A stretch of DNA of 64,000 nucleotides from an uncultured delta proteobacterium (GTDB lineage Bacteria; Myxococcota_A; Polyangia; Polyangiales; Polyangiaceae), in assembly GCA_963696385.1 (NCBI GenBank), contig CAVOKF010000005.1, positions 32,001-96,000 on the forward strand, read 5' to 3'. Within the stretch, counting starts at the first letter, position 1. Every line of letters starts with the position of its first letter. A program made the position numbers and the translations under genes. The notes under the pieces are model-generated. The model searched no databases. It worked only from the letters and a program-made list of their open reading frames with translations, and had not been told where the DNA came from. This document shows, in pieces, positions 18,819-32,130 of this stretch.

Positions 18819-18935
18819 GTGGCGACCATTTCGTTTTTCGCTCGTTCGACACACTGAAACGAGTAACGTGGCGGCCGCGCTAGCGGCCGTTGGCGAGCCG
18901 TGTTCGATAGCGCCAGTTGGAGGCATCGCAAAGCG

Positions 18936-19541
18936 ATGAAGGTGGATAAGGACAAGATCGTCGTCGGAGACAGTGGCTATCCGGTCATGCACGAGATGTT
19001 CGTGCCGAAGGCGATATTCTTCACCAACGGCGTTGGAGTTCACAAGGATCGCCTTTCGTCTTTCGAGCTCGCCCTGCGCGACGCCGGTATCGAGAAAGCG
19101 AACCTCGTCACCGTCAGCTCGATCTTTCCGCCTCGATGCAAAGAAATGAGCCGCAAAGAGGGCGAAAAGCTCATTATGCCCGGTCAAATCGTGCACTGCG
19201 TGATGGCACGGCAAGACACCAACGAACCGAATCGGCTCATCGCTGCTGCAATCGGCCTCGCGCGCCCTGCTGACAAGGACCGTTACGGATATTTGTCCGA
19301 GCACCATAGCTACGGTGAGACCGCGAGAAAGGCGGGCGACTACGCCGAGGACCTCGCAGCAACGATGCTAGCGACCACGCTCGGGATCGAATTCGACCCC
19401 GAGAAGGCCTGGAACGAGCGCGAGCAGGTCTTCCGGCTCGAAAAGACGATCTTGAAGACGCGCAATATCGTCCAGAGCGCTGAAGGTCATCCCAAGGGTA
19501 CGTGGTCAACCGTCATCGCCTTGGGGGTCTTCATTTTTTAG
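18936..19541 (+). CDS. pdaD: Pyruvoyl-dependent arginine decarboxylase
   Basis: '[23 protein letters not shown]' with the Ser-Ser self-cleavage site; 'YGYLSEHH'. Confidence 0.92.
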
Positions 19542-19877: not shown

Positions 19878-21014
19878 CTATAGCGATCGCCGCGCGCCTG
19901 ATCGAGTCGACGCCTGAATCTCAGCGGGCTCGCCAAGCCGTCGCCGCCGCAGCGCGTAGCGCACCAAAAGGCGGACGAGTGCGGCGAAGTCGATTCCGAC
20001 GACCGCTGCGGCGCGGGCGATCCCCGCGTTCGGCGACAAGTCGCAATTGGGGTTCACGTCGACGACGTAGGGAATGCCACTCGATGCGAGGCGAATGTCC
20101 ACGCGGCCGTAGTCCCGCACGCCGACGGCGCGGAACGCCTCCGAGGCCACTCTGCGAACGCGGGCCGCGACCGCAGTCGGGAGAATCGGGTGCATGACGG
20201 GCACGGTCCCCAGATCGTCGACTGAGCCGATCGTCCATTTGGCGTCGTAGGAAACGATGCGCGGTGCGTCGGGCGGCAGTGCCGTGAAGTCGATCTCGCT
20301 CAGCGGGAGCACGCGTGGCGTGGGATGTCCGAGCAGTGCGACGTTGAACTCGCGACCATCGATAAACTGCTCCACGAGGCACGGCTGCCGCAATTTTGTG
20401 ACGACTGCATGCACCGCCCGCGAGAGCTCAGCGGAGCTGCCCACCACGCTCGTTGGCGCAATGCCAACCGACCCGTCCTCGCGCACTGGCTTGACGATCA
20501 GCGGGAATGCCAGATCGCACGGCTCGCCCGCGCTTGCGAGGACGCGCCCTGCGGGAGTTGGAATTCCCGCCTCTTCCAGGCGCTGCTTCACTCGATCCTT
20601 TCGAAGCGCAAAGCTCAGCACCTCCGGCGGCGATCCGGTGTACGGGATCCCGAGAAGACCGAGAAAGAGCGGCACGGCGCTCTCGAGCCTGGCATCGCCG
20701 GCAAGCGACTCGCACAGGTTGAATGCGCAGTCGACGTCGAGGTCCGCAAGGCGAGTCCTTAGACCCACGAGATCACCGTCGACCGGGACCAGGTGCGCCT
20801 CGTAGCCCGTTCCGGTCAGCGCACTTGCCACACTGGTAGCGACGAAGCGCACCTCCGCGCGCGCCGCCCACGCGGGATCCACTTCAGGGCAGCCGTCCTC
20901 GTAGTCGACATTATGCAGGACCGCCACGCGCTTGGTTGCGCGGTTGCGCTTCGATGGAGGCCGCCGATCCGAGGTCGTTTGAGCCGGAGCGGCTGGAGGC
21001 AACTCGAACATCAT
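19878..21014 (-). CDS. D-Ala--D-Ala ligase-like ATP-grasp protein
   Basis: 'FNLCE', 'IPYTGS', 'PLIVKPVREDGSVGI', 'VEQFIDGRE', 'YDAKW', 'GRVDIR', 'DVNPN'; lacks the N-terminal GGxSxE of true Ddl. Confidence 0.85.
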   Translation of the reverse strand: MMFELPPAAPAQTTSDRRPPSKRNRATKRVAVLHNVDYEDGCPEVDPAWAARAEVRFVATSVASALTGTGYEAHLVPVDGDLVGLRTRLADLDVDCAFNLCESLAGDARLESAVPLFLGLLGIPYTGSPPEVLSFALRKDRVKQRLEEAGIPTPAGRVLASAGEPCDLAFPLIVKPVREDGSVGIAPTSVVGSSAELSRAVHAVVTKLRQPCLVEQFIDGREFNVALLGHPTPRVLPLSEIDFTALPPDAPRIVSYDAKWTIGSVDDLGTVPVMHPILPTAVAARVRRVASEAFRAVGVRDYGRVDIRLASSGIPYVVDVNPNCDLSPNAGIARAAAVVGIDFAALVRLLVRYALRRRRLGEPAEIQASTRSGARRSL

Positions 21015-21105
21015 GACTCCGTCGTCCTTCGGTGGGGCGCGCGCCAGCGGGGTGACAACATGCGCCCTTCTTTGCGAATCTACCGGCCTACCGATCTTGG
21101 TCAAG

Positions 21106-23446: not shown

Positions 23447-24946
23447 GTGCGCCGCCGCCCCCTTCGTCTTGGAAGCAGCACGATTTTCGATCTTCTCGTC
23501 GCCCTGTTCGCGTCCACGCCCGCCTGGATCGTGAAGCATCCCCCGCTTGAAGATCTGCCGCTGCACCTGGCAACCATTCGAATCATCAAGAGCTTTCACG
23601 ACCCAGTCTTCCGGTTCGACCAGTACTTCGTGCTGACGCTCGGACGGACGCAGTACGTTCTCTACTATTTGGCCGGTGCGGCCCTAGCCACTGCAATCGG
23701 CGTAGTCGGGGCCAACGTGGTGCTCATGTCGTCGTACCTCGGCGGGACCATTCTGGCGCTGCGGTCGCTGCTGCAGGCGCTCAACCGCGATGAGCGTCTG
23801 AGCCTGCTTATCATCCCGCTGCTCGTCAACGTGATGTTCGTCTACGGGCTCTTTCCCTTCTTGCTCGGCATTCCCATCATGTTTTGGGCCCTCGGCGCGG
23901 CTGTGCGTCACTTCGAGCGGCTGTCCATTGGGACCAGCATCCTTCTAGGTACCTTGGCGCTGGCGCTCTTTTACTCCCACATTTTTCCGTTCGGAATTTT
24001 CTGCATCGGCTTCGCCGCGATGTTTCCGTGGGGTAGACCGTCCCGCTGGCTCCGCGCGGCCACTCCCGTCGCCCCAGCTTTCGTTGTGCTGGTATCGTGG
24101 ACGTTGCTCACCAAGGCGGGCAAGCTCGTGAGCGCTGCAGCCACGGACAACGGCGGGGATCCGCGGTTACCCGTCGACGCTGCGATCGAGCAAATTCCGA
24201 AATGGTTCACCAATGTGCTCCGCGACACTACCGACGAGGTGACGGTCGTAGCCCTCGCGATCGTGGTCGTAGCGGCTTTCGGTTTATCGCTCGGAGATTC
24301 CGATCATCCCAAGGCTCACGTCCGCGCATACACGGCGCTTCCGGTCGCCTGCATCGTGCTGTACTTTCTGTTGCCCCAGGGACACGGCTATATCTGGCTC
24401 ATCGCGCAGCGGTTTCCGATTCTGTTCGCGATGACGGCCATTCCACTCGTCAGGATGCCGCGCGGAGCACGCGGGCATGTGGTCGCCTTCGCAGCTCTCG
24501 CCGTCGGCGTGAGCTCGATCGTCAATACGTGCCGACACTTCATCCGATTCGAGGTCGAGGAGGTTGGCGACATCGACGACGTCATCGCCTCCATGCAGCC
24601 GGGCCGAAAGGTGTGTGCCCTCATCTACGACAAGGGGTCGGCCATCGTGAACAATCAGCCGTTTCTCCACTTTGGTTCATATTATCAAGTACGAAAAGGT
24701 GGCGTGGTCATGTTCACATTCGCCGGGTACGCGCACTGGCCCGTCGATTTCCAGCCGGGCAAGTACCCGCCGCCGGGCGGTCCCGCCCGCTTGCGATGGG
24801 AGTGGACCCCGGAGTCTGTGCCAATCTCGGAAGTGTATCCGTACTACGATTATGTGCTCAGCCGCGGTGCTGGTTTCCGGCCCCCGCCCGGCACGTACCA
24901 TCCGGCGTCACGCTCGGGACGCTGGACCGTTTGGGCCAAGGACTGA
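23447..24946 (+). CDS. Polytopic membrane protein, possibly GT-C-like transferase
   Basis: Early 'EDLPLH' loop motif, about 10 or more TM helices, soluble C-terminal domain. Confidence 0.7.
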   Translation: MRRRPLRLGSSTIFDLLVALFASTPAWIVKHPPLEDLPLHLATIRIIKSFHDPVFRFDQYFVLTLGRTQYVLYYLAGAALATAIGVVGANVVLMSSYLGGTILALRSLLQALNRDERLSLLIIPLLVNVMFVYGLFPFLLGIPIMFWALGAAVRHFERLSIGTSILLGTLALALFYSHIFPFGIFCIGFAAMFPWGRPSRWLRAATPVAPAFVVLVSWTLLTKAGKLVSAAATDNGGDPRLPVDAAIEQIPKWFTNVLRDTTDEVTVVALAIVVVAAFGLSLGDSDHPKAHVRAYTALPVACIVLYFLLPQGHGYIWLIAQRFPILFAMTAIPLVRMPRGARGHVVAFAALAVGVSSIVNTCRHFIRFEVEEVGDIDDVIASMQPGRKVCALIYDKGSAIVNNQPFLHFGSYYQVRKGGVVMFTFAGYAHWPVDFQPGKYPPPGGPARLRWEWTPESVPISEVYPYYDYVLSRGAGFRPPPGTYHPASRSGRWTVWAKD

Positions 24947-25049: not shown

Positions 25050-26207
25050 TCAGATGCTGCTGTTGAGTGGGTCGAACTTACTGCCGCCCGTTGTGAAGGT
25101 CGTGGACTTGCTCTTCGTGGTGGAAGCGCCGTGCGCCGCGGCAGGAGCCGCGCCATGGGCCTTGTGCTTCTTCGACTTTGCCTTGTCGCTATCTTCGACG
25201 TGCGTCTTGTGATCGACGACCGTAAGTTGATCGGTAAAATGAGGGCTCAGTGGCGAATCCGATGGAGGACCAGTGAGGGGAGTGGGCGCAGTAGCCTCTG
25301 CTGTCGCCAAGGGCGGGGCGATAGCGGGAGTCGGCTCCGCGGCCGGTGGCGGCGGTGGCGGTGCAACCCCGACAGCAGATTCCTGTGTTGCTCCCCGCAA
25401 GCCGACGCGCGCCAAATAGGGCTGCGCCCATCGCGGGCGCTGAACGGCTACGGCGGCCAAGCTCCCAACGATCGCCACAGCGACCATTGCGCCGAACCAG
25501 CGCTTTGCGGAGCCGCCGCGAAGCTTCGCCATGTCGGCGTCAATCTCACCAAAATCGACGCTCAATGGGCGCAGGCTGGTGAGGATTGGGCTCCCCGGAC
25601 CCTGTGCGGCAAATCCCGAAGTGGCCCCATTCACCATGTGTGATGCTGGGCTAGACGCAAGGCCGTAGACAAAAGGCTGACCCGCCAACGCGTGCTGAGA
25701 GGAGACGTCGGACGCGTTGGGGCCAGGCTGCGGGATTTGCGACGGGGTCGCCATTCGGCGACTGGCCGCAGCGACGGTGTCGGGCGACGGCGCTCCGAAA
25801 GGCAATTGCGCGACTCGCAGGGGAGCTACCTCTGCCTGAGGTATGGGGTATGCGGGCACACCGTTCGGGATGCCAACCTCGCGTCGGGTCATTTGCGCCG
25901 GGGGCGAGGTCGGTCGCGAGACATCCGTCGCGTGCGCACCGGGCTCCAGCGCCTGCACGTGTTCGGGAGCTGCTGAGTTGGGCGCCGATCCCACGGGCGC
26001 CGACTCGATCAGCTCGACCTCGTCGGTGTCGTCGTCGATGCCAGCGAGCGCGCCGAGCTTCGTCCACTGAGTCGCGCCGGACGCCAGCACCATCGTCTCT
26101 CCGTCGATGTGCCCCGCTTGGAAGGCCTCGTCCAACTGATCGAGCGTGACGCGATGCACGTCCCCGTCAGAGAGCTTTACATACCAATGATCGCCGCTTG
26201 TGCTCAT
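25050..26207 (-). CDS. Bitopic protein with N-terminal GYF_2-like domain and Pro/Ala-rich linkers
   Basis: 'WYVKL..G...VTLDQL..AF..G.ID.ET.V...G..QW..L'; one TM near residue 240; GAAGGAG RBS. Confidence 0.75.
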   Translation of the reverse strand: MSTSGDHWYVKLSDGDVHRVTLDQLDEAFQAGHIDGETMVLASGATQWTKLGALAGIDDDTDEVELIESAPVGSAPNSAAPEHVQALEPGAHATDVSRPTSPPAQMTRREVGIPNGVPAYPIPQAEVAPLRVAQLPFGAPSPDTVAAASRRMATPSQIPQPGPNASDVSSQHALAGQPFVYGLASSPASHMVNGATSGFAAQGPGSPILTSLRPLSVDFGEIDADMAKLRGGSAKRWFGAMVAVAIVGSLAAVAVQRPRWAQPYLARVGLRGATQESAVGVAPPPPPPAAEPTPAIAPPLATAEATAPTPLTGPPSDSPLSPHFTDQLTVVDHKTHVEDSDKAKSKKHKAHGAAPAAAHGASTTKSKSTTFTTGGSKFDPLNSSI

Positions 26208-26341
26208 GCGCTGCTCCTTCAACACGCTCGAGGCGGTTAAACACTATAGCCCGTTGAAGCGTCGGTAGGCGCAGAAGGCACGAAAATGACAGGATATGCA
26301 ATGACACGAGATAATTTTCGTCGCACTAAAACCTGGCGGGA

Positions 26342-27346
26342 TCAAGTCGAGCGAATTGGCGCCGTCTCACTTGCTGCCGGGCCCGTGAGCTCGCGTCGCG
26401 TCAAGGCGGCAACGAGCACGCAAATGCCCGCCATCGTAAGTTGGGCGACGTGCGCTACGAAGGCGATCGATAGAGCGCGTGCGGGTGCGTTGCTGAACCC
26501 AAGCGCCCCCGCGAACGTACCGTATGTACCGTCGGCAACGCCGAGCTGATTGGGAATGACATCGCCGATCGTGGCCCCCACCAAGTGGATGCCGTGGGCG
26601 ATGAAGGCGCCTCGGACATCGCCCATGCCGCCGACTGAGGACAACACGACGCCGTACTGGACGAGCTGGCCCGCCCGCGCAATCGAACATGCCACGGCGC
26701 TGCGCCAAGGCAACACGCTGCGAGTCGCAGGCTCGGACGCCGGGTGCGGTTCGCGCTCCCTTAGCCGGTGCCGGAGCAAGCCGGCGGTCCGATGGAACCA
26801 CCGCGCAAGTGGCCCCCCACGCGTGATCTTTAACAGCCCGGCAGCAATAGCGAACATGAGTGCGGCGTTCCCGGCAAGCAGGAGCGCCAACGGCGCGTGA
26901 ACCCCGAAGCTCCATGCGACGACGCCGAAGGCCGCTGCGGACGCAACGGCGATGGCAAAGACGTAAGCTGCTTGCAACTGCGCGCTCGCGTTCGCGGCCG
27001 CAGCTACTCCGATATGCTGAGAGATGAGCGTTGCCCGCGTTACTTCACCGGCGGCGCGCCCTGCGGGAAGGAGGACCATCATTGCGTACGCGATGGCGGA
27101 GGACCGGACCCAGGTCGACGCCGGCACCTTCGCCGACTGGCGCTGCAGCAATGAGCGGAGCGCGACCACGTCGCCCAAGAGCTGCGCCACCTCGAACGCG
27201 AGAATAGTCGGCATCCACGATCGCCCCTGCCACATCACGTGCGCGACCCGCTCCGGACCGGCGCCACGCACCAGGTACGCGAGGAGAACGAGTCCCGCGG
27301 CCGCCAGCAATGACCTGCCGACAGGGCCTCGGAAGGCGGCGATCAC
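26342..27346 (-). CDS. Lysylphosphatidylglycerol-synthase TM / flippase-like domain protein
   Basis: 'LLPAGRAAGEVTR' and 'IPNQLGVADG' resemble LPG_synthase_TM motifs; GTGA overlap with the upstream aminotransferase stop. Confidence 0.75.
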   Translation of the reverse strand: MIAAFRGPVGRSLLAAAGLVLLAYLVRGAGPERVAHVMWQGRSWMPTILAFEVAQLLGDVVALRSLLQRQSAKVPASTWVRSSAIAYAMMVLLPAGRAAGEVTRATLISQHIGVAAAANASAQLQAAYVFAIAVASAAAFGVVAWSFGVHAPLALLLAGNAALMFAIAAGLLKITRGGPLARWFHRTAGLLRHRLREREPHPASEPATRSVLPWRSAVACSIARAGQLVQYGVVLSSVGGMGDVRGAFIAHGIHLVGATIGDVIPNQLGVADGTYGTFAGALGFSNAPARALSIAFVAHVAQLTMAGICVLVAALTRRELTGPAASETAPIRST

Positions 27347-28701
27347 GACGCCTGTCGGCCTGCCCATTCAGCGATAGCGTGGCGATGCCGCCAAACGCGC
27401 CGAAAGGCCTCGGCGTACCGGTCGACCGTATCGTCGGTTTGGGCGATTAGCGGACAAGACTGCGAAAAGAGCACAAGGGAGCCAGCCAAGAGGCTCCGCG
27501 TCCTCGGATACCGCTCGGGGTCGTAGTTGACGAGCAGGTCCGTACCGTCGCTATGGGATTGGGGAAATCCCGTGGACGAATCGCGCCGCTGAAAGACTGT
27601 TTGGGCGGGTAAGGGTCCCGATTGCCATTGGACTACTTCGAGCCCTTCTGCACGGAGTGCACGGGATACCGCGTCGCGAAAGAGCTCGGGCGGAACGTCG
27701 AGGCCTGCCCGCCTCGGATCGAGGTGGACTCGGAATTTGTGGTGCACAGAGCTGCGTCCAGGCGGAACATGCGGCGGCGTGACACCGTCCAGCTCGGACA
27801 AGGCCAGCGACAGCCGTTCGGCGTTTCGCTGACACCGTTCAGTTCGCTCCGGCAATTCGGCGAGCTGCGCTCGTGCGAAAGCCGCCATCATCTCGTTTCC
27901 GCGGTACATTGAGCCCACCCGACAAGAGTCCAGAGCTCGCAATCCGTCGAGCGGTCGACGCGGATCGTACCCCGCAGCCTCGCCGCGCGAGAGATCTTGC
28001 CCGAAGTTTCGCAGCGAATTCGCCTCCTCAGCGATCGATGCGCTGCTTGTCACCAGGATTCCCCCTTCGCCCGCCGGCAAATTTTTGCTTGATTGCAGCG
28101 AGAAGGCGCCGGCCGTAGCTATTGCGCCGACGCGCCGGCCCTCGAACTCGGCCCCATGGGCTTGGGCCGCATCTTCAATGACGAGTAAGTTGCATCTCCG
28201 CGCGACTCCCATCAGAGCGGCCATGTCGGCCGCGCAGCCGTGCATATGAACCGGCATGAGCGCCCGCGTCCTGGCAGTAACAGCGTCGGAGGCGGCGCCC
28301 GGATCGATGCACCCGGTGAGGGGATCCACGTCTGCGAACACCGGTACTGCGCCAACGTGGATCACGGCTAGAGGTGTAGCGACGAAGCTGTAGGCAGGAA
28401 CAATCACTTCGTCGCCCGCACGCACTCCGGCGGCCGCGAGGGCGATCGCGAGAGCGCTCGTTCCGCAATGTGTCAGCAGTGCGTATTTGACTTCTGCGAA
28501 CTGGGCGAATTCTGCTTCGAGAGCTATGGCTTCCGGAGCGAAGGGTCCCGAAAGGATGCCACGATCGAGAACTCGGGTGATGGCTCGTCGCTCGTTTTCG
28601 GTAATGAGCGGCCACAGCCGGTGCGCCTCTCTACCGATTACGGGAGTCCCTCCGAAGAGGGCGAGGTCGGCGGTGCGGGACGCGGTTCCCGCTAAGGTCA
28701 C
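27343..28701 (-). CDS. DegT/DnrJ/EryC1/StrS-family PLP aminotransferase
   Basis: 'GDEVIVPAYSFVAT', 'PVHMHG', 'IEDAAQAHG', 'FSLQSSKNLPAGEGG' (PLP Lys); GTGA overlap with the ino1 stop. Confidence 0.92.
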   Translation of the reverse strand: MTLAGTASRTADLALFGGTPVIGREAHRLWPLITENERRAITRVLDRGILSGPFAPEAIALEAEFAQFAEVKYALLTHCGTSALAIALAAAGVRAGDEVIVPAYSFVATPLAVIHVGAVPVFADVDPLTGCIDPGAASDAVTARTRALMPVHMHGCAADMAALMGVARRCNLLVIEDAAQAHGAEFEGRRVGAIATAGAFSLQSSKNLPAGEGGILVTSSASIAEEANSLRNFGQDLSRGEAAGYDPRRPLDGLRALDSCRVGSMYRGNEMMAAFARAQLAELPERTERCQRNAERLSLALSELDGVTPPHVPPGRSSVHHKFRVHLDPRRAGLDVPPELFRDAVSRALRAEGLEVVQWQSGPLPAQTVFQRRDSSTGFPQSHSDGTDLLVNYDPERYPRTRSLLAGSLVLFSQSCPLIAQTDDTVDRYAEAFRRVWRHRHAIAEWAGRQAS

Positions 28702-29954
28702 TGCGTGGGCCCCAGGTGGGACTTGGCGCCGTTCGATTGCGAGAGTGCGCGGCTCGTCGCATGCGTCCGTGCCCACTCGAGCAGCAGCTTCTCCTGCTTG
28801 AAAAGGTCGTGGACCGGTGCCTCTCCGGGCGCATGGTACGGAGACTTGAAGAACATCGATAGCTGCCGCTGAATACCCCGTTCGCCCTGTCGTTTCGCGA
28901 CGTCGAGCAGGCGAACGAGATCGATAACGAGCGGTGCGGCGAGAGCCGAGTCCTGACACAGGAAGTTGACCTTGATCTGCATCGGGATTCCGGCAAAACC
29001 CACGATGTCGATGTTGTCCCACGCCTCTTTGGAGTCGCCGCGTGGCTTGTAATAGTGAATGTGAACTTGGTGATTGTCCACGTGGTAGCCCACGATCGAA
29101 TCGAGCACGGCGGCTTTGCTCATGACCTTCGTCTTGTTTGACGATGGCGCGTCGAGTGCCAACCCGTCGCTGTTGCCCAGGACGTTGGTCGAGTACCAGC
29201 CCTCGATGAAGAGCCGCCGCGCTCGGAACATGGATGCCAGCGCCGTTTTCAGCAGCGTCTGGCCGGTTTTCCCGTCCATGCCAGCAAATGGGTTCGCCAT
29301 CTCGTTTGCGTGCTGTTCGAGTGCCGGAACGTTGGTCAAGCTCGGTGTGAAGTTGCAGTACGGGATTTGGAGCTGGTTTGCCGCATAAAAATACCTCATC
29401 GCGGGCGAAATCTCCGGGTCACTCGTATCTAGACCCGCGTGGAACGCACGCAAGTCACGGTGCACGGGCTGTACTTCAAGGAAACGTTCGGTGGACGCGA
29501 GGTTGACCATCACGACGCGATCCAGGCCGTGCTCTTTCTTGAACGACTCCATCTGGCGTTGGACGATGGCGATCTGCTCGCGATGTGTGCTCGCGGCGAT
29601 GAGATTGCCGCCGTCGATGTTTTCGCAGTACGACCTTGCAAATACCGCTGGCCAGGGTCGCACTCGTTCCAGATCCGGGCGCACCTTTTCGAGTACGTGC
29701 TCGAGAAAGACCCCGTGATGGAGCGCGCCTTCATAGACGTTTGCATACTTGAGATCCCATCCTCCGAAGACGAGGTTCTCGAGTGGAGCGAAATCGAGAA
29801 GCTCGGTGATGGACTCGGCGATCCGCGCGTCAGTCCGCTCGGTGACCATCCCGATGCGCGGCACGATGCCACGTTTCATCAGTTCCACGCCGGCGATCAC
29901 GGTCGATGCGACGGCTCCGTTTACTCCAATGATGGCGACCCCGATCCGGTTCAT
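28698..29954 (-). CDS. ino1: myo-inositol-1-phosphate (inositol-3-phosphate) synthase
   Basis: 'GVAIIGVNGAVAST', 'NLASTE', 'DGKTGQT', 'NVLGNSDG', 'DSKEAWD', 'DSALAAPLVIDL', 'FFKSP'. Confidence 0.95.
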   Translation of the reverse strand: MNRIGVAIIGVNGAVASTVIAGVELMKRGIVPRIGMVTERTDARIAESITELLDFAPLENLVFGGWDLKYANVYEGALHHGVFLEHVLEKVRPDLERVRPWPAVFARSYCENIDGGNLIAASTHREQIAIVQRQMESFKKEHGLDRVVMVNLASTERFLEVQPVHRDLRAFHAGLDTSDPEISPAMRYFYAANQLQIPYCNFTPSLTNVPALEQHANEMANPFAGMDGKTGQTLLKTALASMFRARRLFIEGWYSTNVLGNSDGLALDAPSSNKTKVMSKAAVLDSIVGYHVDNHQVHIHYYKPRGDSKEAWDNIDIVGFAGIPMQIKVNFLCQDSALAAPLVIDLVRLLDVAKRQGERGIQRQLSMFFKSPYHAPGEAPVHDLFKQEKLLLEWARTHATSRALSQSNGAKSHLGPTQ

Positions 29955-29996
29955 GGCTACTTGCCTCGTGCGCGATGCTTGACGGGTCCGTGGCGC

Positions 29997-31649
29997 TTAT
30001 TGTGCCGCGTACTGCCAAAGCAGTTGTTTCTTCGTGTCGTCGATGATGCGCGGGAACTTGCCTTGCACGTTGCCGCCCGTAACCTGTGCGAGGAAGCGGC
30101 GCGCTCCACCGCTAGCGAGCAGCACAACGCGCGCAGGGAGCAAGGCGACGTCGTCCTGGCGGTGCTCGCGGTAAACGCGGTTCTGCATCCTCAGGCCCTC
30201 GTCGAAGGCGTTGGCGAACGCCCTGATGTCGCCGGGGGCGGCTCCTTGATGGAACTCGATGAACAAGATGTACCGACACTTCGCGCTGCCGTCGATACCG
30301 ACTTCCGCGCCGGCCCCGAAGTCGACCGCGGTGCCAGGATGGGCCGCGAGTGCATGAGTGACCGCCTGCTCGATTTCAACGTGGGTCGTAAGCTCTTGGG
30401 TCAACGAAAGGCACCCGGATAAGCGGCCTGCGAACTCGATGCGTAATGGATCGACCGACGCGAAGCGGACGATGTCCCCGAGCTCGTAGGCGTACAGGCC
30501 CGACGCCGTTGTGACCACGATGGAATACAGGCGATCGCGTTCGACGGACCACAGCGGAACACGAGCCGCGTCCGGGTCAGCGCGTCTCTCGATCGGAACG
30601 AACTCGAAGAATGTTCCGCGGTGCGGGATCATCAACATCCCGTCCGCTCCCGAGAAGTCGGACGCCGCGTAGACGCCACCTTCCGTGGCGTTGTACGTGT
30701 CGACCAGCGTGAAGTCGTTGCGCCCCATCAGCTCTCTAATGACGGGCAGATACGGCGCTGCAGCGACTCCCCCGCCGAAAAGGACTCGCAAGTTGGGCCA
30801 CACCTCAGTTATGCCTCGGACGTTTCGCCCGCGTGCGCGGGCTGCCGCTCGCACCTTCTCGAACAGGAGGCTGAACCAGCACGTTGTTCCGACGACCGCG
30901 CGCACGTCGTAATCAAGGTAGCGCGCGGCGATCACCGCGAGCTTCTCATCGTAGTGTTCAATCGTTCGCACGTCGCGCTCCGGTAAGTACACCGGTCGCG
31001 TCACGAGTGGCATCTTCGTCATCATGAGAGCCGGATTCGACGTTACGAGCGCCGGACCGTCCCTCCGCATCGTTGTTGGCGGAAAGAGGCCGAGCGTGAA
31101 GCCGCGGAAGAGGTCTGCATCTCGCGACCATCGCATATACCGCATCAGGGTGTCCGAGCCCGCGCGTTGCTGGAAGCGGATCTGGAGGTCCGTAATGGGT
31201 AAGAATTTGGACTTGCCGTCGCTTGAGCTCCCTGACGAATTGCCGAAATAGCGCACGGCGTCAGGGACGAGCACACCGCGTTCGCCCGCGCGCATGCGAT
31301 CGATGAGGGGCGAAAACGAGTCATAGTCACCCACTCGTACGCATCGAGCGAATGAATCGTAGTCACGGATGTGCGAAAATTCGTGCGCACGCCCGTACTC
31401 CGTTCGCGCTGCGCGACGGAGCAGCGACAGGAGAATAGTCTCTTGCGTCATTCGCACGTCTGCCAGTGCGGCGTCCCAGGCCTGCACCTGAAGACGCGCG
31501 ACGTGACGCAGCGCGTGGCCGAAAAACCTTGGGTAGGGGGATCGAACCAGCCTGCGCGCGTGGTTAGTTGACGCGGCTCCCTCGGCGCGGCCACCGTCGA
31601 CGCGCGCAGGTGCTTCTTGCGACAGCTCGTTCATCTGACGGGACGTCAT
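29997..31649 (-). CDS. GH3-family acyl acid-amido synthetase-like protein
   Basis: GH3/ANL motifs 'SSGSS..KSKFLPIT', 'YNATEG', 'FFEFVP', 'GLYAYELGD', C-terminal 'QGKFPR'. Confidence 0.9.
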   Translation of the reverse strand: MTSRQMNELSQEAPARVDGGRAEGAASTNHARRLVRSPYPRFFGHALRHVARLQVQAWDAALADVRMTQETILLSLLRRAARTEYGRAHEFSHIRDYDSFARCVRVGDYDSFSPLIDRMRAGERGVLVPDAVRYFGNSSGSSSDGKSKFLPITDLQIRFQQRAGSDTLMRYMRWSRDADLFRGFTLGLFPPTTMRRDGPALVTSNPALMMTKMPLVTRPVYLPERDVRTIEHYDEKLAVIAARYLDYDVRAVVGTTCWFSLLFEKVRAAARARGRNVRGITEVWPNLRVLFGGGVAAAPYLPVIRELMGRNDFTLVDTYNATEGGVYAASDFSGADGMLMIPHRGTFFEFVPIERRADPDAARVPLWSVERDRLYSIVVTTASGLYAYELGDIVRFASVDPLRIEFAGRLSGCLSLTQELTTHVEIEQAVTHALAAHPGTAVDFGAGAEVGIDGSAKCRYILFIEFHQGAAPGDIRAFANAFDEGLRMQNRVYREHRQDDVALLPARVVLLASGGARRFLAQVTGGNVQGKFPRIIDDTKKQLLWQYAAQ

Positions 31650-31677
31650 AGTCCCTGAGGTGACCGATGCTCAAGGA

Positions 31678-32130
31678 TCAAGCGCGGTCCAAAATACGTG
31701 ATGCTGCGTAATCGGCGAGCGTGACCACGGTGTCGATTGGGTTGAAACGTACGCAGCTCGGGAAGATCCTCGCGTCGCATACGAAGAGGTTGTCCACGCC
31801 ATGGATGGCCAAATCCGCTTCCACCGCGCGGACCTGCGGGTTGGACGAACAGGGGGTGCCTCCCTGCGGATGTGCGCAGAGCGCGCCGCGCCGAGTCGAT
31901 AGGATGGGCTCGTCGAGCATCGAGAGCCCCCTACGACGTCGCCCTGCACGGAAGGGGTGTCTGGAGAGCATCACGCTGCGAGCTCCGGACCCGGAGAAGG
32001 CGCAGGCTATTGCCGATGAAGCCACGCGCGTAGGATAGGTGCGGCGGTCGTCGTATCAAGTCGGCGTGCTGTTCGAACAACACGGCCCGCGTCGATAAGC
32101 GCTCGCGCCACGCTCGGTAGGTGCGTCCGC
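31678..32130 (-). pseudogene. Decayed GMC-family oxidoreductase (C-terminal remnant)
   Basis: 'AHPQGG', 'HGVDNLFVCDARIFPS...NP..TV..LA..AA..I' match the GMC C-terminal domain; no FAD-binding N-terminal domain; upstream limit approximate. Confidence 0.75.

Follow-up and report, generated by a model that had tools for sequence, protein, structure and literature searches.

A conserved gene set of Myxococcota that joins a GH3-family ligase to Ino1, a DegT-family aminotransferase, and a flippase-like protein: a candidate route to an amino-inositol amide

Bacterial proteins of the GH3 family are widespread, with more than 7,500 matches, and one of them, OlsH, uses ATP and a free fatty acid to make N-acyl-ornithine (PMC12493201, excerpt). 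This gives a precedent for the synthesis of an amide lipid by a GH3 protein of bacteria. The aminocyclitol of hygromycin A has been proposed to arise through the route Hyg18-Hyg25-Hyg17-Hyg8 (PMC10949010, excerpt), and an LPG-synthase homologue flanks both Bacteroidetes inositol-lipid clusters (Heaver et al., PMC9246714, excerpt). The present study concerns a locus in which related genes stand together, within a 64,000-nucleotide (nt) window (the whole stretch of DNA analyzed) on contig CAVOKF010000005.1 of an uncultured Polyangiaceae bacterium (assembly GCA_963696385.1). The host assembly comprises 8 contigs and 6.9 Mb, and those of its relatives that carry a name are metagenome-assembled genomes of Polyangiaceae and of other Myxococcota. 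Coordinates follow the numbering of the whole window; G000 is the window's own genome, and other G and L codes denote sampled genomes and loci.

The locus encodes, in order, a GH3-family ligase, the myo-inositol-phosphate synthase Ino1, a DegT-family aminotransferase, and a stand-alone LPG_synthase_TM protein (Table 1). We concluded that it represents a conserved, uncharacterized pathway, each part of which belongs to a known family, and that it is a variant of GH3-type amide-lipid synthesis. We consider it reasonably probable that the operon product is an amino-inositol amide destined for the envelope. A first-pass annotation of this DNA knew of no pathway with this gene set; our literature search, outside of which most subscription papers fell, also turned up no account of these genes as a set and none of a myxobacterial N-acyl-inosamine lipid.

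Gene order was compared across 37 loci from two homologue searches (23 and 14 loci). Duplicates were removed (L054 = L004, L062 = L019) and six loci ending at a contig edge inside the operon were excluded (L010, L014, L018, L019, L055, and L056), leaving 29 evaluable loci, all from Myxococcota. The first-pass annotation had staked its proposal on the gene set staying together in other genomes, and the order GH3-Ino1-aminotransferase-flippase was present in 25 of the 29 (the aminotransferase of L009 being frameshifted in the assembly). Ino1 directly followed GH3 in 26. The exceptions were L011, in which the flippase gene was not in place, L020 and L021, which had GH3-flippase-MMPL only, and L066, which had GH3 alone. 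This arrangement is far beyond chance. The loci span several families, orders, and classes according to their kinship labels; the counts overstate independence because the loci are kin. An inositol monophosphatase (IMPase)-family gene was located near 18 of the 25 full loci (convergent downstream, divergent upstream, or co-oriented upstream). In the stretches fetched, an MMPL gene occurred in 18 of these loci, an approximately 630-amino-acid (aa) GMC gene in six, and an aldehyde dehydrogenase gene in five; the positions and strands of the IMPase and MMPL genes varied. Among the 80 metagenome loci listed, at least two had Ino1 adjoining the aminotransferase; GH3 was seen in none of the 80, although many of them were too short for its absence to be judged. 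Phage carriage was rejected: 79 viral loci had DegT matches, and not one of these loci matched Ino1, GH3, GMC, aldehyde dehydrogenase, IMPase, or MMPL.

GH3, the aminotransferase, and a 632-aa GMC flavoprotein encoded elsewhere in the window genome served as queries against a single sample of 401 genomes from the phylum. The GH3 clade occurred in 15 of the 401 genomes (46-70% identity, E < 1e-148), while all other GH3 matches were weaker than 1e-19. The aminotransferase clade was found in 14, all within the 15 GH3 genomes, the fifteenth being cut by a contig end inside Ino1. Relatives of the 632-aa GMC were present in 105 genomes, and the top 15 of these were exactly the 15 GH3 genomes (at least 594 bits; next 560). 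Twelve sequences of this co-inherited type grouped as a single clade (support 0.85), well apart from the type of the GMC remnant in the window. A follow-up set of 40 genomes combined the remaining 14 positives with G401 and G402, from which L020 and L021 come, and with 24 negatives, most of them carrying GMC paralogues. All 14 of these positives had operon-type Ino1 and none of the 24 negatives did; 14 of the negatives had only the second Ino1 type. The aldehyde dehydrogenase scored at least 524 bits in G401, G402, and 12 of the positives, versus 458 bits or less in the 24 negatives; in the remaining two positives it was contig-cut (61-62% identity). The flippase profile, partly built from the same genomes, matched 16 of 17 GH3 genomes (G000 included) and 1 of 24 negatives. 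In G265, the genes were dispersed over four contigs, yet all five genes sought and the GMC were retained.

The GTGA start/stop overlaps at 28698-28701 and 27343-27346 were exactly where the first-pass annotation had placed them, and the other intergenic gaps, given as approximately 30-40 nt, measured 28 and 42 nt. Its count of five packed, co-oriented genes needed revision: four are intact and on the same strand, and the locus is four genes and a pseudogene because the GMC gene has lost its flavin adenine dinucleotide (FAD)-binding half and its frame is broken. The four core proteins are 90-99% identical to those of the near relative L001. Synonymous codon differences from L001 exceeded non-synonymous differences in all four genes (GH3 70/29, Ino1 55/6, aminotransferase 66/26, and flippase-like 55/35). 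Four peat metatranscriptome assemblies held contigs of an approximately 94%-identical relative over the aminotransferase, Ino1, and GH3, with DNA carry-over being possible. One RNA-library contig of 4.1 kb reached 27517-31624, although such contigs do not demonstrate a single transcript. No contig covered the remnant in three of the four runs, and the flippase gene was little covered, but contigs cannot show absence.

The ligase matched the Pfam GH3 N, M, and C models with 116, 59, and 39 bits (cut-off 23.6). Its nucleotide-binding motifs start at residues 138, 318, and 384, with core residues invariant in 19 of 19 sequences; the corresponding motifs of AtGH3.11 are SSGTSQGRPK, YGSSE, and GLYRYRLGD (PMC12493201, excerpt). 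Residue S139 of the operon ligase aligns with S115 of OlsH. The statement of the first-pass annotation that bacterial GH3 proteins are largely uncharacterized no longer wholly holds, OlsH having been characterized (PMC12493201, excerpt); it is the only such protein in the literature found. We speculate from family chemistry that the operon GH3 adenylates an acid and may form an amide with an aminocyclitol acceptor. It seems unlikely that it is instead an OlsH-like amino-acid N-acyltransferase for an ornithine- or lysine-type lipid, with the aminocyclitol of Ino1 and the aminotransferase used separately or added later. The OlsH model NF052613 was the only NCBIfam match of GH3, but it reached 200.9 bits against a cut-off of 620. 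In a tree of 82 sequences, the 19 aligned members and five 50%-cluster representatives formed a clade (support 1.0) on a long stem (0.59) from other bacterial GH3 proteins, seen here in Myxococcota only. GH3-flippase-MMPL persists without Ino1 and the aminotransferase in L020 and L021, and a review counts Sorangium among ornithine-lipid producers lacking OlsBA (PMC12971839). However, Ino1 directly follows GH3 in most loci, as described above, neither OlsI nor OlsG was seen beside the operon GH3, and inspection by eye of the open reading frame (ORF) families present in at least three loci, with no genome-wide OlsI search made, showed no OlsI-like alpha/beta-hydrolase. Plasmid GH3 matches shared 24-30% identity.

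The closest solved relative of Ino1 was the Bacteroides enzyme 7NWR (E 1e-92). Residues K229, K276, K280, K309, D335, and K370, which we take to be the catalytic site, were invariant in 17 of 17 aligned sequences, and the mycothiol-type model TIGR03450 gave 30 bits against a cut-off of 638. The window genome has a second Ino1, 43% identical to that of the operon, which heads a run on contig C4 (L123). The PAP2 protein of this run scored 148 bits on a phosphoinositol dihydroceramide synthase model (cut-off 480), and its MMPL protein is 53% identical to the operon MMPL proteins of relatives. Judging from these matches, L123 may be a parallel layout for an inositol lipid. The separate locus means that ordinary inositol phospholipid synthesis has a locus of its own and that the GH3-linked Ino1 is extra. 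A similar run, with CDP-alcohol-transferase-like and GtrA-like genes, was noted in G075 (L323).

The pyridoxal phosphate (PLP) residues D177 and K206 of the aminotransferase were invariant in 17 of 17 sequences, and a fold search confirmed the DegT fold. Its nearest solved relative was Fic25 (271 bits), followed by SerTA, RbmB, and BtrR. The first-pass annotation had called for a phylogeny against BtrR, RifK, and StsC, the last being the aminotransferase of the streptidine pathway. Our midpoint-rooted FastTree of 94 sequences (those under 330 or over 520 aa excluded, except L134 and L138) was built without these or other characterized references; it grouped the enzyme with Ino1-linked enzymes and with those of non-nucleotide substrates. 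The operon aminotransferases were sister (0.95) to the metagenome enzymes of L134 and L138, which follow a 35%-identical Ino1 type, and the two groups nested in a clade (0.996) with transketolase-linked Fic25-like enzymes. The four other DegT proteins of the window genome fell far off. We propose that the aminotransferase may turn an inosose into an inosamine. Alternatively, it could be an NDP-ketosugar enzyme for a surface glycan, clustered here by coincidence; NDP-sugar aminotransferase models were the top NCBIfam matches, as for any DegT protein. However, all were far under their cut-offs (WecE, PseC, DesI, ArnB, LegC, and RfbH, at most 178 bits versus 375-650; best 178/375), no nucleotidyltransferase, NDP-sugar dehydratase, or glycosyltransferase recurred in the full loci by eye, the genome's other DegT proteins are distant, and co-inheritance survives dispersal in G265; we regard this explanation as extremely improbable. 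The Ino1-aminotransferase complex prediction scored 0.00 and was counted neither for nor against.

L134 (387-2351) and L138 (1178-3084) are short metagenome contigs in which the other Ino1 type precedes the sister-clade aminotransferase; in L138, a geranylgeranyl-reductase-like gene precedes the pair. These contigs possibly represent another lipid-linked amino-inositol system. A second copy of the aminotransferase clade at L119:8285-9601 (G380:C132) has no inositol context, and its PLP-lysine motif and dimer loop deviate from those of the other aligned sequences.

The LPG_synthase_TM protein matched PF03706 with 39.5 bits (cut-off 33.4); an ATG at 27367 is an alternative start. Its predicted model (pLDDT 87.9) matched MprF 6lvf with Z 17.3 and a root-mean-square deviation of 3.7 over 240 aligned residues, versus Z 7.0 for the next unrelated fold. 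The flippase-like identity given by the first-pass annotation was thus borne out in the predicted model, which has the fold of the N-terminal membrane region of MprF, and the last gene may encode a flippase of the MprF type. In G370, which lacks the GH3 clade, a flippase paralogue was seen by eye downstream of a CDP-alcohol-phosphotransferase-like gene, near a GMC and small-subunit pair (L305:8049-13926).

Table 1. Features of the locus, its surroundings in the window, and related loci elsewhere in the window genome
Feature	Position	Strand	Details
GMC pseudogene remnant	31678..32077	-	PF05199 only; C-terminal piece, approximately 480-aa GMC of the L002/L005/L016 type
GH3-family acyl-adenylate/amide ligase (predicted)	29997..31649	-	550 aa; Pfam GH3, GH3_M, GH3_C
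Ino1/MIPS myo-inositol-phosphate synthase	28698..29954	-	418 aa; PF07994 + PF01658
DegT/DnrJ/EryC1/StrS PLP aminotransferase, proposed inosose aminotransferase	27343..28701	-	452 aa; PF01041
Stand-alone LPG_synthase_TM protein	26342..27346	-	334 aa from GTG; PF03706
Pro/Ala-rich protein	25050-26225	-	Weak GYF_2 match at the N terminus, sub-threshold with 24.2 bits
Multi-pass membrane protein	23447-24946	+	499 aa; no Pfam/NCBIfam match
D-Ala-D-Ala-ligase-like ATP-grasp protein	19878-21104	-	Under all cut-offs
Pyruvoyl-dependent arginine decarboxylase	18900-19541	+	
Second inositol locus (L123)	G000:C4:353605-358984		Ino1, inositol phosphorylceramide (IPC)-synthase-like PAP2 protein, PgpA, MMPL
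Co-inherited GMC	G000:C4:747157-749055		632 aa; Pfam GMC N + C, gluconate-2-dehydrogenase-subunit-3-like N-terminus
Aldehyde dehydrogenase	G000:C4:745493-747037		Convergent with the 632-aa GMC (L122, C4:745493-749055), unlinked to the operon here

The operon would form the core of a seven- to eight-gene envelope-lipid pathway to an N-acyl amino-inositol (inosamine amide). Ino1, with its family function and intact residues, would convert glucose-6-phosphate to myo-inositol phosphate, and the IMPase, to judge from its recurrent linkage, may release inositol. Oxidation of inositol would then give an inosose; the likeliest enzyme for this step is the co-inherited GMC flavoprotein of 632 aa, with another enzyme as the alternative. 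The DegT enzyme may transaminate the inosose to an inosamine. The co-inherited aldehyde dehydrogenase may supply a lipophilic acid from an aldehyde, and GH3 would form an acyl-AMP and then the amide, by the family mechanism and as OlsH does with ornithine, the acceptor here being a proposal. The MprF-fold protein may flip the product, and MMPL may move it outward. Everything after Ino1 is drawn from linkage, co-inheritance, and family chemistry. In hygromycin A, an inosamine is joined to an acid by an amide linkage.

The oxidation step was where the model of the first-pass annotation changed. Its sequence of inosose, inosamine, GH3 amide, and flippase is in line with the conserved gene set, the kinship of the aminotransferase, the IMPase and MMPL linkage, and the OlsH precedent, but the window GMC, which it had named as a possible oxidase alongside another dehydrogenase, was rejected for this step. 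Homology of the remnant runs from approximately 32077 to 31678, the last approximately 170 codons' worth of a GMC, with a frameshift and an internal deletion. Its counterpart is the stretch of residues approximately 310-478 in a GMC of 478 aa, which L002, L005, and L016 (3 of the 25 full loci) carry in intact form, the remnant being 47-51% identical to residues 368-478 of the intact copies and frameshifted relative to residues 310-330. The N-terminal approximately 305 residues and the FAD-binding domain are missing; therefore, the frameshifted remnant cannot be an oxidase. The L001 counterpart (76% identity) also has stops. We concluded that the window GMC, to judge from its sequence, is a decaying pseudogene outside the conserved core. 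It also belongs to a different subfamily, approximately 30% identical to the co-inherited GMC, which is unlinked and comes with the aldehyde dehydrogenase.

Whether the 632-aa GMC oxidizes inositol or feeds the aldehyde dehydrogenase appears to us evenly balanced. A GMC oxidizing an aminoglycoside hydroxyl exists (7DVE, a weak match). The pairing of a GMC with an aldehyde dehydrogenase recalls long-chain-alcohol oxidation systems such as LaoABC, on which our literature search yielded no paper. The IolG model was below its cut-off in 15 of 15 operon genomes, with none at the locus, the divergent Hyg17 not having been used as a query. No dedicated Gfo/Idh/MocA dehydrogenase was found among the five scanned of the seven above-cut-off proteins of the window genome (best IolG score 135/355).

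If the GMC and aldehyde dehydrogenase oxidized a side-chain alcohol, the acid could be a sterol or other triterpenoid acid that GH3 couples to the amino-inositol. Steroid-acid amides of amino-inositol are reportedly present in sterol-making bacteria, although our literature search did not retrieve such a report; if it exists, it is a precedent for the product class and the cluster is a candidate route. Myxobacteria hold unidentified sterol conjugates (PMC10202945), and the excerpt of this source mentions neither inositol nor an amide. The window genome encodes an oxidosqualene-cyclase-like protein in which a DCTAE motif is present, and the linked MMPL weakly matches the HpnN and BstA models. 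However, these matches reached 203/752 and 130/1400 against the cut-offs, the cyclase is unlinked, and of the 15 GH3 genomes only 6 yielded a squalene/oxidosqualene cyclase, the nearly closed G140 and G165 not being among them. A self-made sterol is therefore not required, which weakened an own-made sterol acid as the required substrate; a scavenged sterol is a possible source. Overall, we consider a sterol-type acid quite unlikely. The cyclase-like gene lies at G000:C8:421190-425603, with squalene-synthase-like and epoxidase-like neighbors followed by an MMPL-like gene.

In G401 and G402, GH3-flippase-MMPL is retained together with the aldehyde dehydrogenase; searches with the operon proteins and the 632-aa GMC as queries found neither Ino1, an aminotransferase orthologue, nor a GMC of that type. 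This suggests two modules, one for the acyl part and export (aldehyde dehydrogenase, GH3, flippase, and MMPL) and one for the head group (Ino1, IMPase, GMC, and aminotransferase). The split pattern also points to the GMC as the inosose-forming enzyme, but is only suggestive because it is one evolutionary event, genome completeness is unstated, and the search yielded no aminotransferase orthologue there. IolG was above its cut-off in G401 and G402 only (2 of 17 GH3 genomes, versus 9 of 181 genomes of the phylum). It lies near iolC/iolD/iolE (by motif) and an IMPase in an inositol-catabolism-like setting (L325, G402:C1:529000-548900; L326, G401:C49).

Several observations weigh against the amino-inositol amide. 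The characterized GH3 amide ligases in the literature found use amino acids as acceptors. BtrR and RbmB matched the aminotransferase with 168-169 bits versus 271 for Fic25, which aminates a carrier-bound dihydroxy-oxo-heptanoate, an open-chain ketone and not a cyclitol (PMC11726168, excerpt). The core of the 25 full loci contains no conserved dehydrogenase, the locus in the window genome lacks a linked IMPase and MMPL, and L011 has no flippase at the locus. The repeated adjacency of the GMC and the aldehyde dehydrogenase is the usual sign of an alcohol-to-acid pair. G401 and G402 are a single related lineage of unstated completeness; their IolG has a catabolic reason to exist because iolC/iolD/iolE-like genes lie near it, and their GH3 may use another amine since the search yielded no aminotransferase orthologue. 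No second acyltransferase was conserved across the loci, and the product may therefore be something other than a bilayer lipid.

This last point, the natural-product clusters that house the nearest plasmid relatives of the aminotransferase, and the parallel of the head-group route with Hyg18/Hyg25/Hyg17/Hyg8 (PMC10949010, excerpt) would also suit a product other than an envelope lipid, namely a small secreted aminocyclitol amide that carries an aryl or short acid and acts as a signal or antibiotic of the hygromycin A kind. However, such a product appears very unlikely given that the conserved partners are an MprF-fold protein and MMPL, that no non-ribosomal peptide synthetase, polyketide synthase, CoA ligase, or resistance gene was seen by eye among the recurring ORF families, and that flippase paralogues stand beside a CDP-alcohol-phosphotransferase-like gene in G370. 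Returning to the envelope amide, we tentatively speculate, with more doubt than confidence, that scattered Myxococcota (15 of 401) make a phosphorus-free membrane amphiphile of an undescribed class, an N-acyl-inosamine, through a GH3 that accepts a cyclitol amine where an amino acid would be usual and a flavin-dependent GMC that replaces an NAD-dependent dehydrogenase as inositol oxidase, with export by a stand-alone MprF-type flippase and MMPL. In its boldest form, this proposal would have an oxidized ether lipid or diradylglycerol as the acid, so that the product mimics phosphatidylinositol as an amide, and a single lineage that makes the same lipid with scavenged inositol.

Other genes near the operon were also recorded. 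The tail of the Pro/Ala-rich protein (Table 1) is conserved at its C terminus, and in several loci of Polyangiaceae its gene follows the operon on the downstream side. The 499-aa membrane protein is kept in close relatives and has two distant paralogues in the same genome. An Omp85-family barrel (PF01103) is divergent from GH3 in L002, L004, L005, L007, L009, L010, L012-L015, L018, L022, and L023, with a relative in the window genome at C3:~670700-672040 (61-64% identical); it could be an outer-membrane partner or plain inherited synteny.

The locus offers a compact, testable case of a GH3 enzyme with a different acceptor. If the proposal is correct, aminocyclitol chemistry, mainly from antibiotics, extends into envelope lipids, with a phosphorus-free lipid head group that we did not find described in the literature. 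It would also suggest a possible substrate for stand-alone LPG_synthase_TM proteins, which are poorly understood, and predict a lipid to seek in peat and soil lipidomes.

Among known systems, OlsH/OlsI of Singulisphaera acidiphila shares the three GH3 nucleotide-binding motifs and the expected ATP-dependent amide formation from a free acid (PMC12493201, excerpt), whereas the operon GH3 (201/620 bits) forms a separate clade and has Ino1, DegT, the flippase, and MMPL as its partners instead. The proposed first four steps toward hygromycin A are mirrored (inositol-phosphate synthase, phosphatase, oxidation, and transamination to an inosamine; PMC10949010, excerpt); in contrast, the operon genomes have a co-inherited GMC, GH3 amide formation, and lipid transporters. 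The streptidine and 2-deoxystreptamine aminotransferases (StsC, BtrR 2C7T, and RbmB 5W70) resemble the proposed enzyme in that their transamination gives an inosamine. Fic25/Vzb9 (PDB 8GYH-J; PMC11726168, excerpt) are closer, with 39-40% identity, TM 0.84-0.87, and a non-nucleotide polyhydroxy-ketone substrate; however, their amino-group carrier protein and transketolase, which were present beside the plasmid aminotransferase matches H1 and H2, did not recur in the GH3 loci by eye. The N-terminal membrane region of MprF (6LVF, 9J8Q) shares the fold of the operon protein, which differs in being a stand-alone protein with no tRNA-dependent synthase domain and 15% identity. The Bacteroidetes clusters BT_1521-1526 are similar in their closely related MIPS and in the LPG-synthase homologue beside the cluster; however, they build the phosphodiester lipids PI-DAG (diacylglycerol type) and PI-DHC (dihydroceramide type) (PMC9246714, excerpt), whereas the operon carries no CDP-alcohol transferase or IPC synthase.

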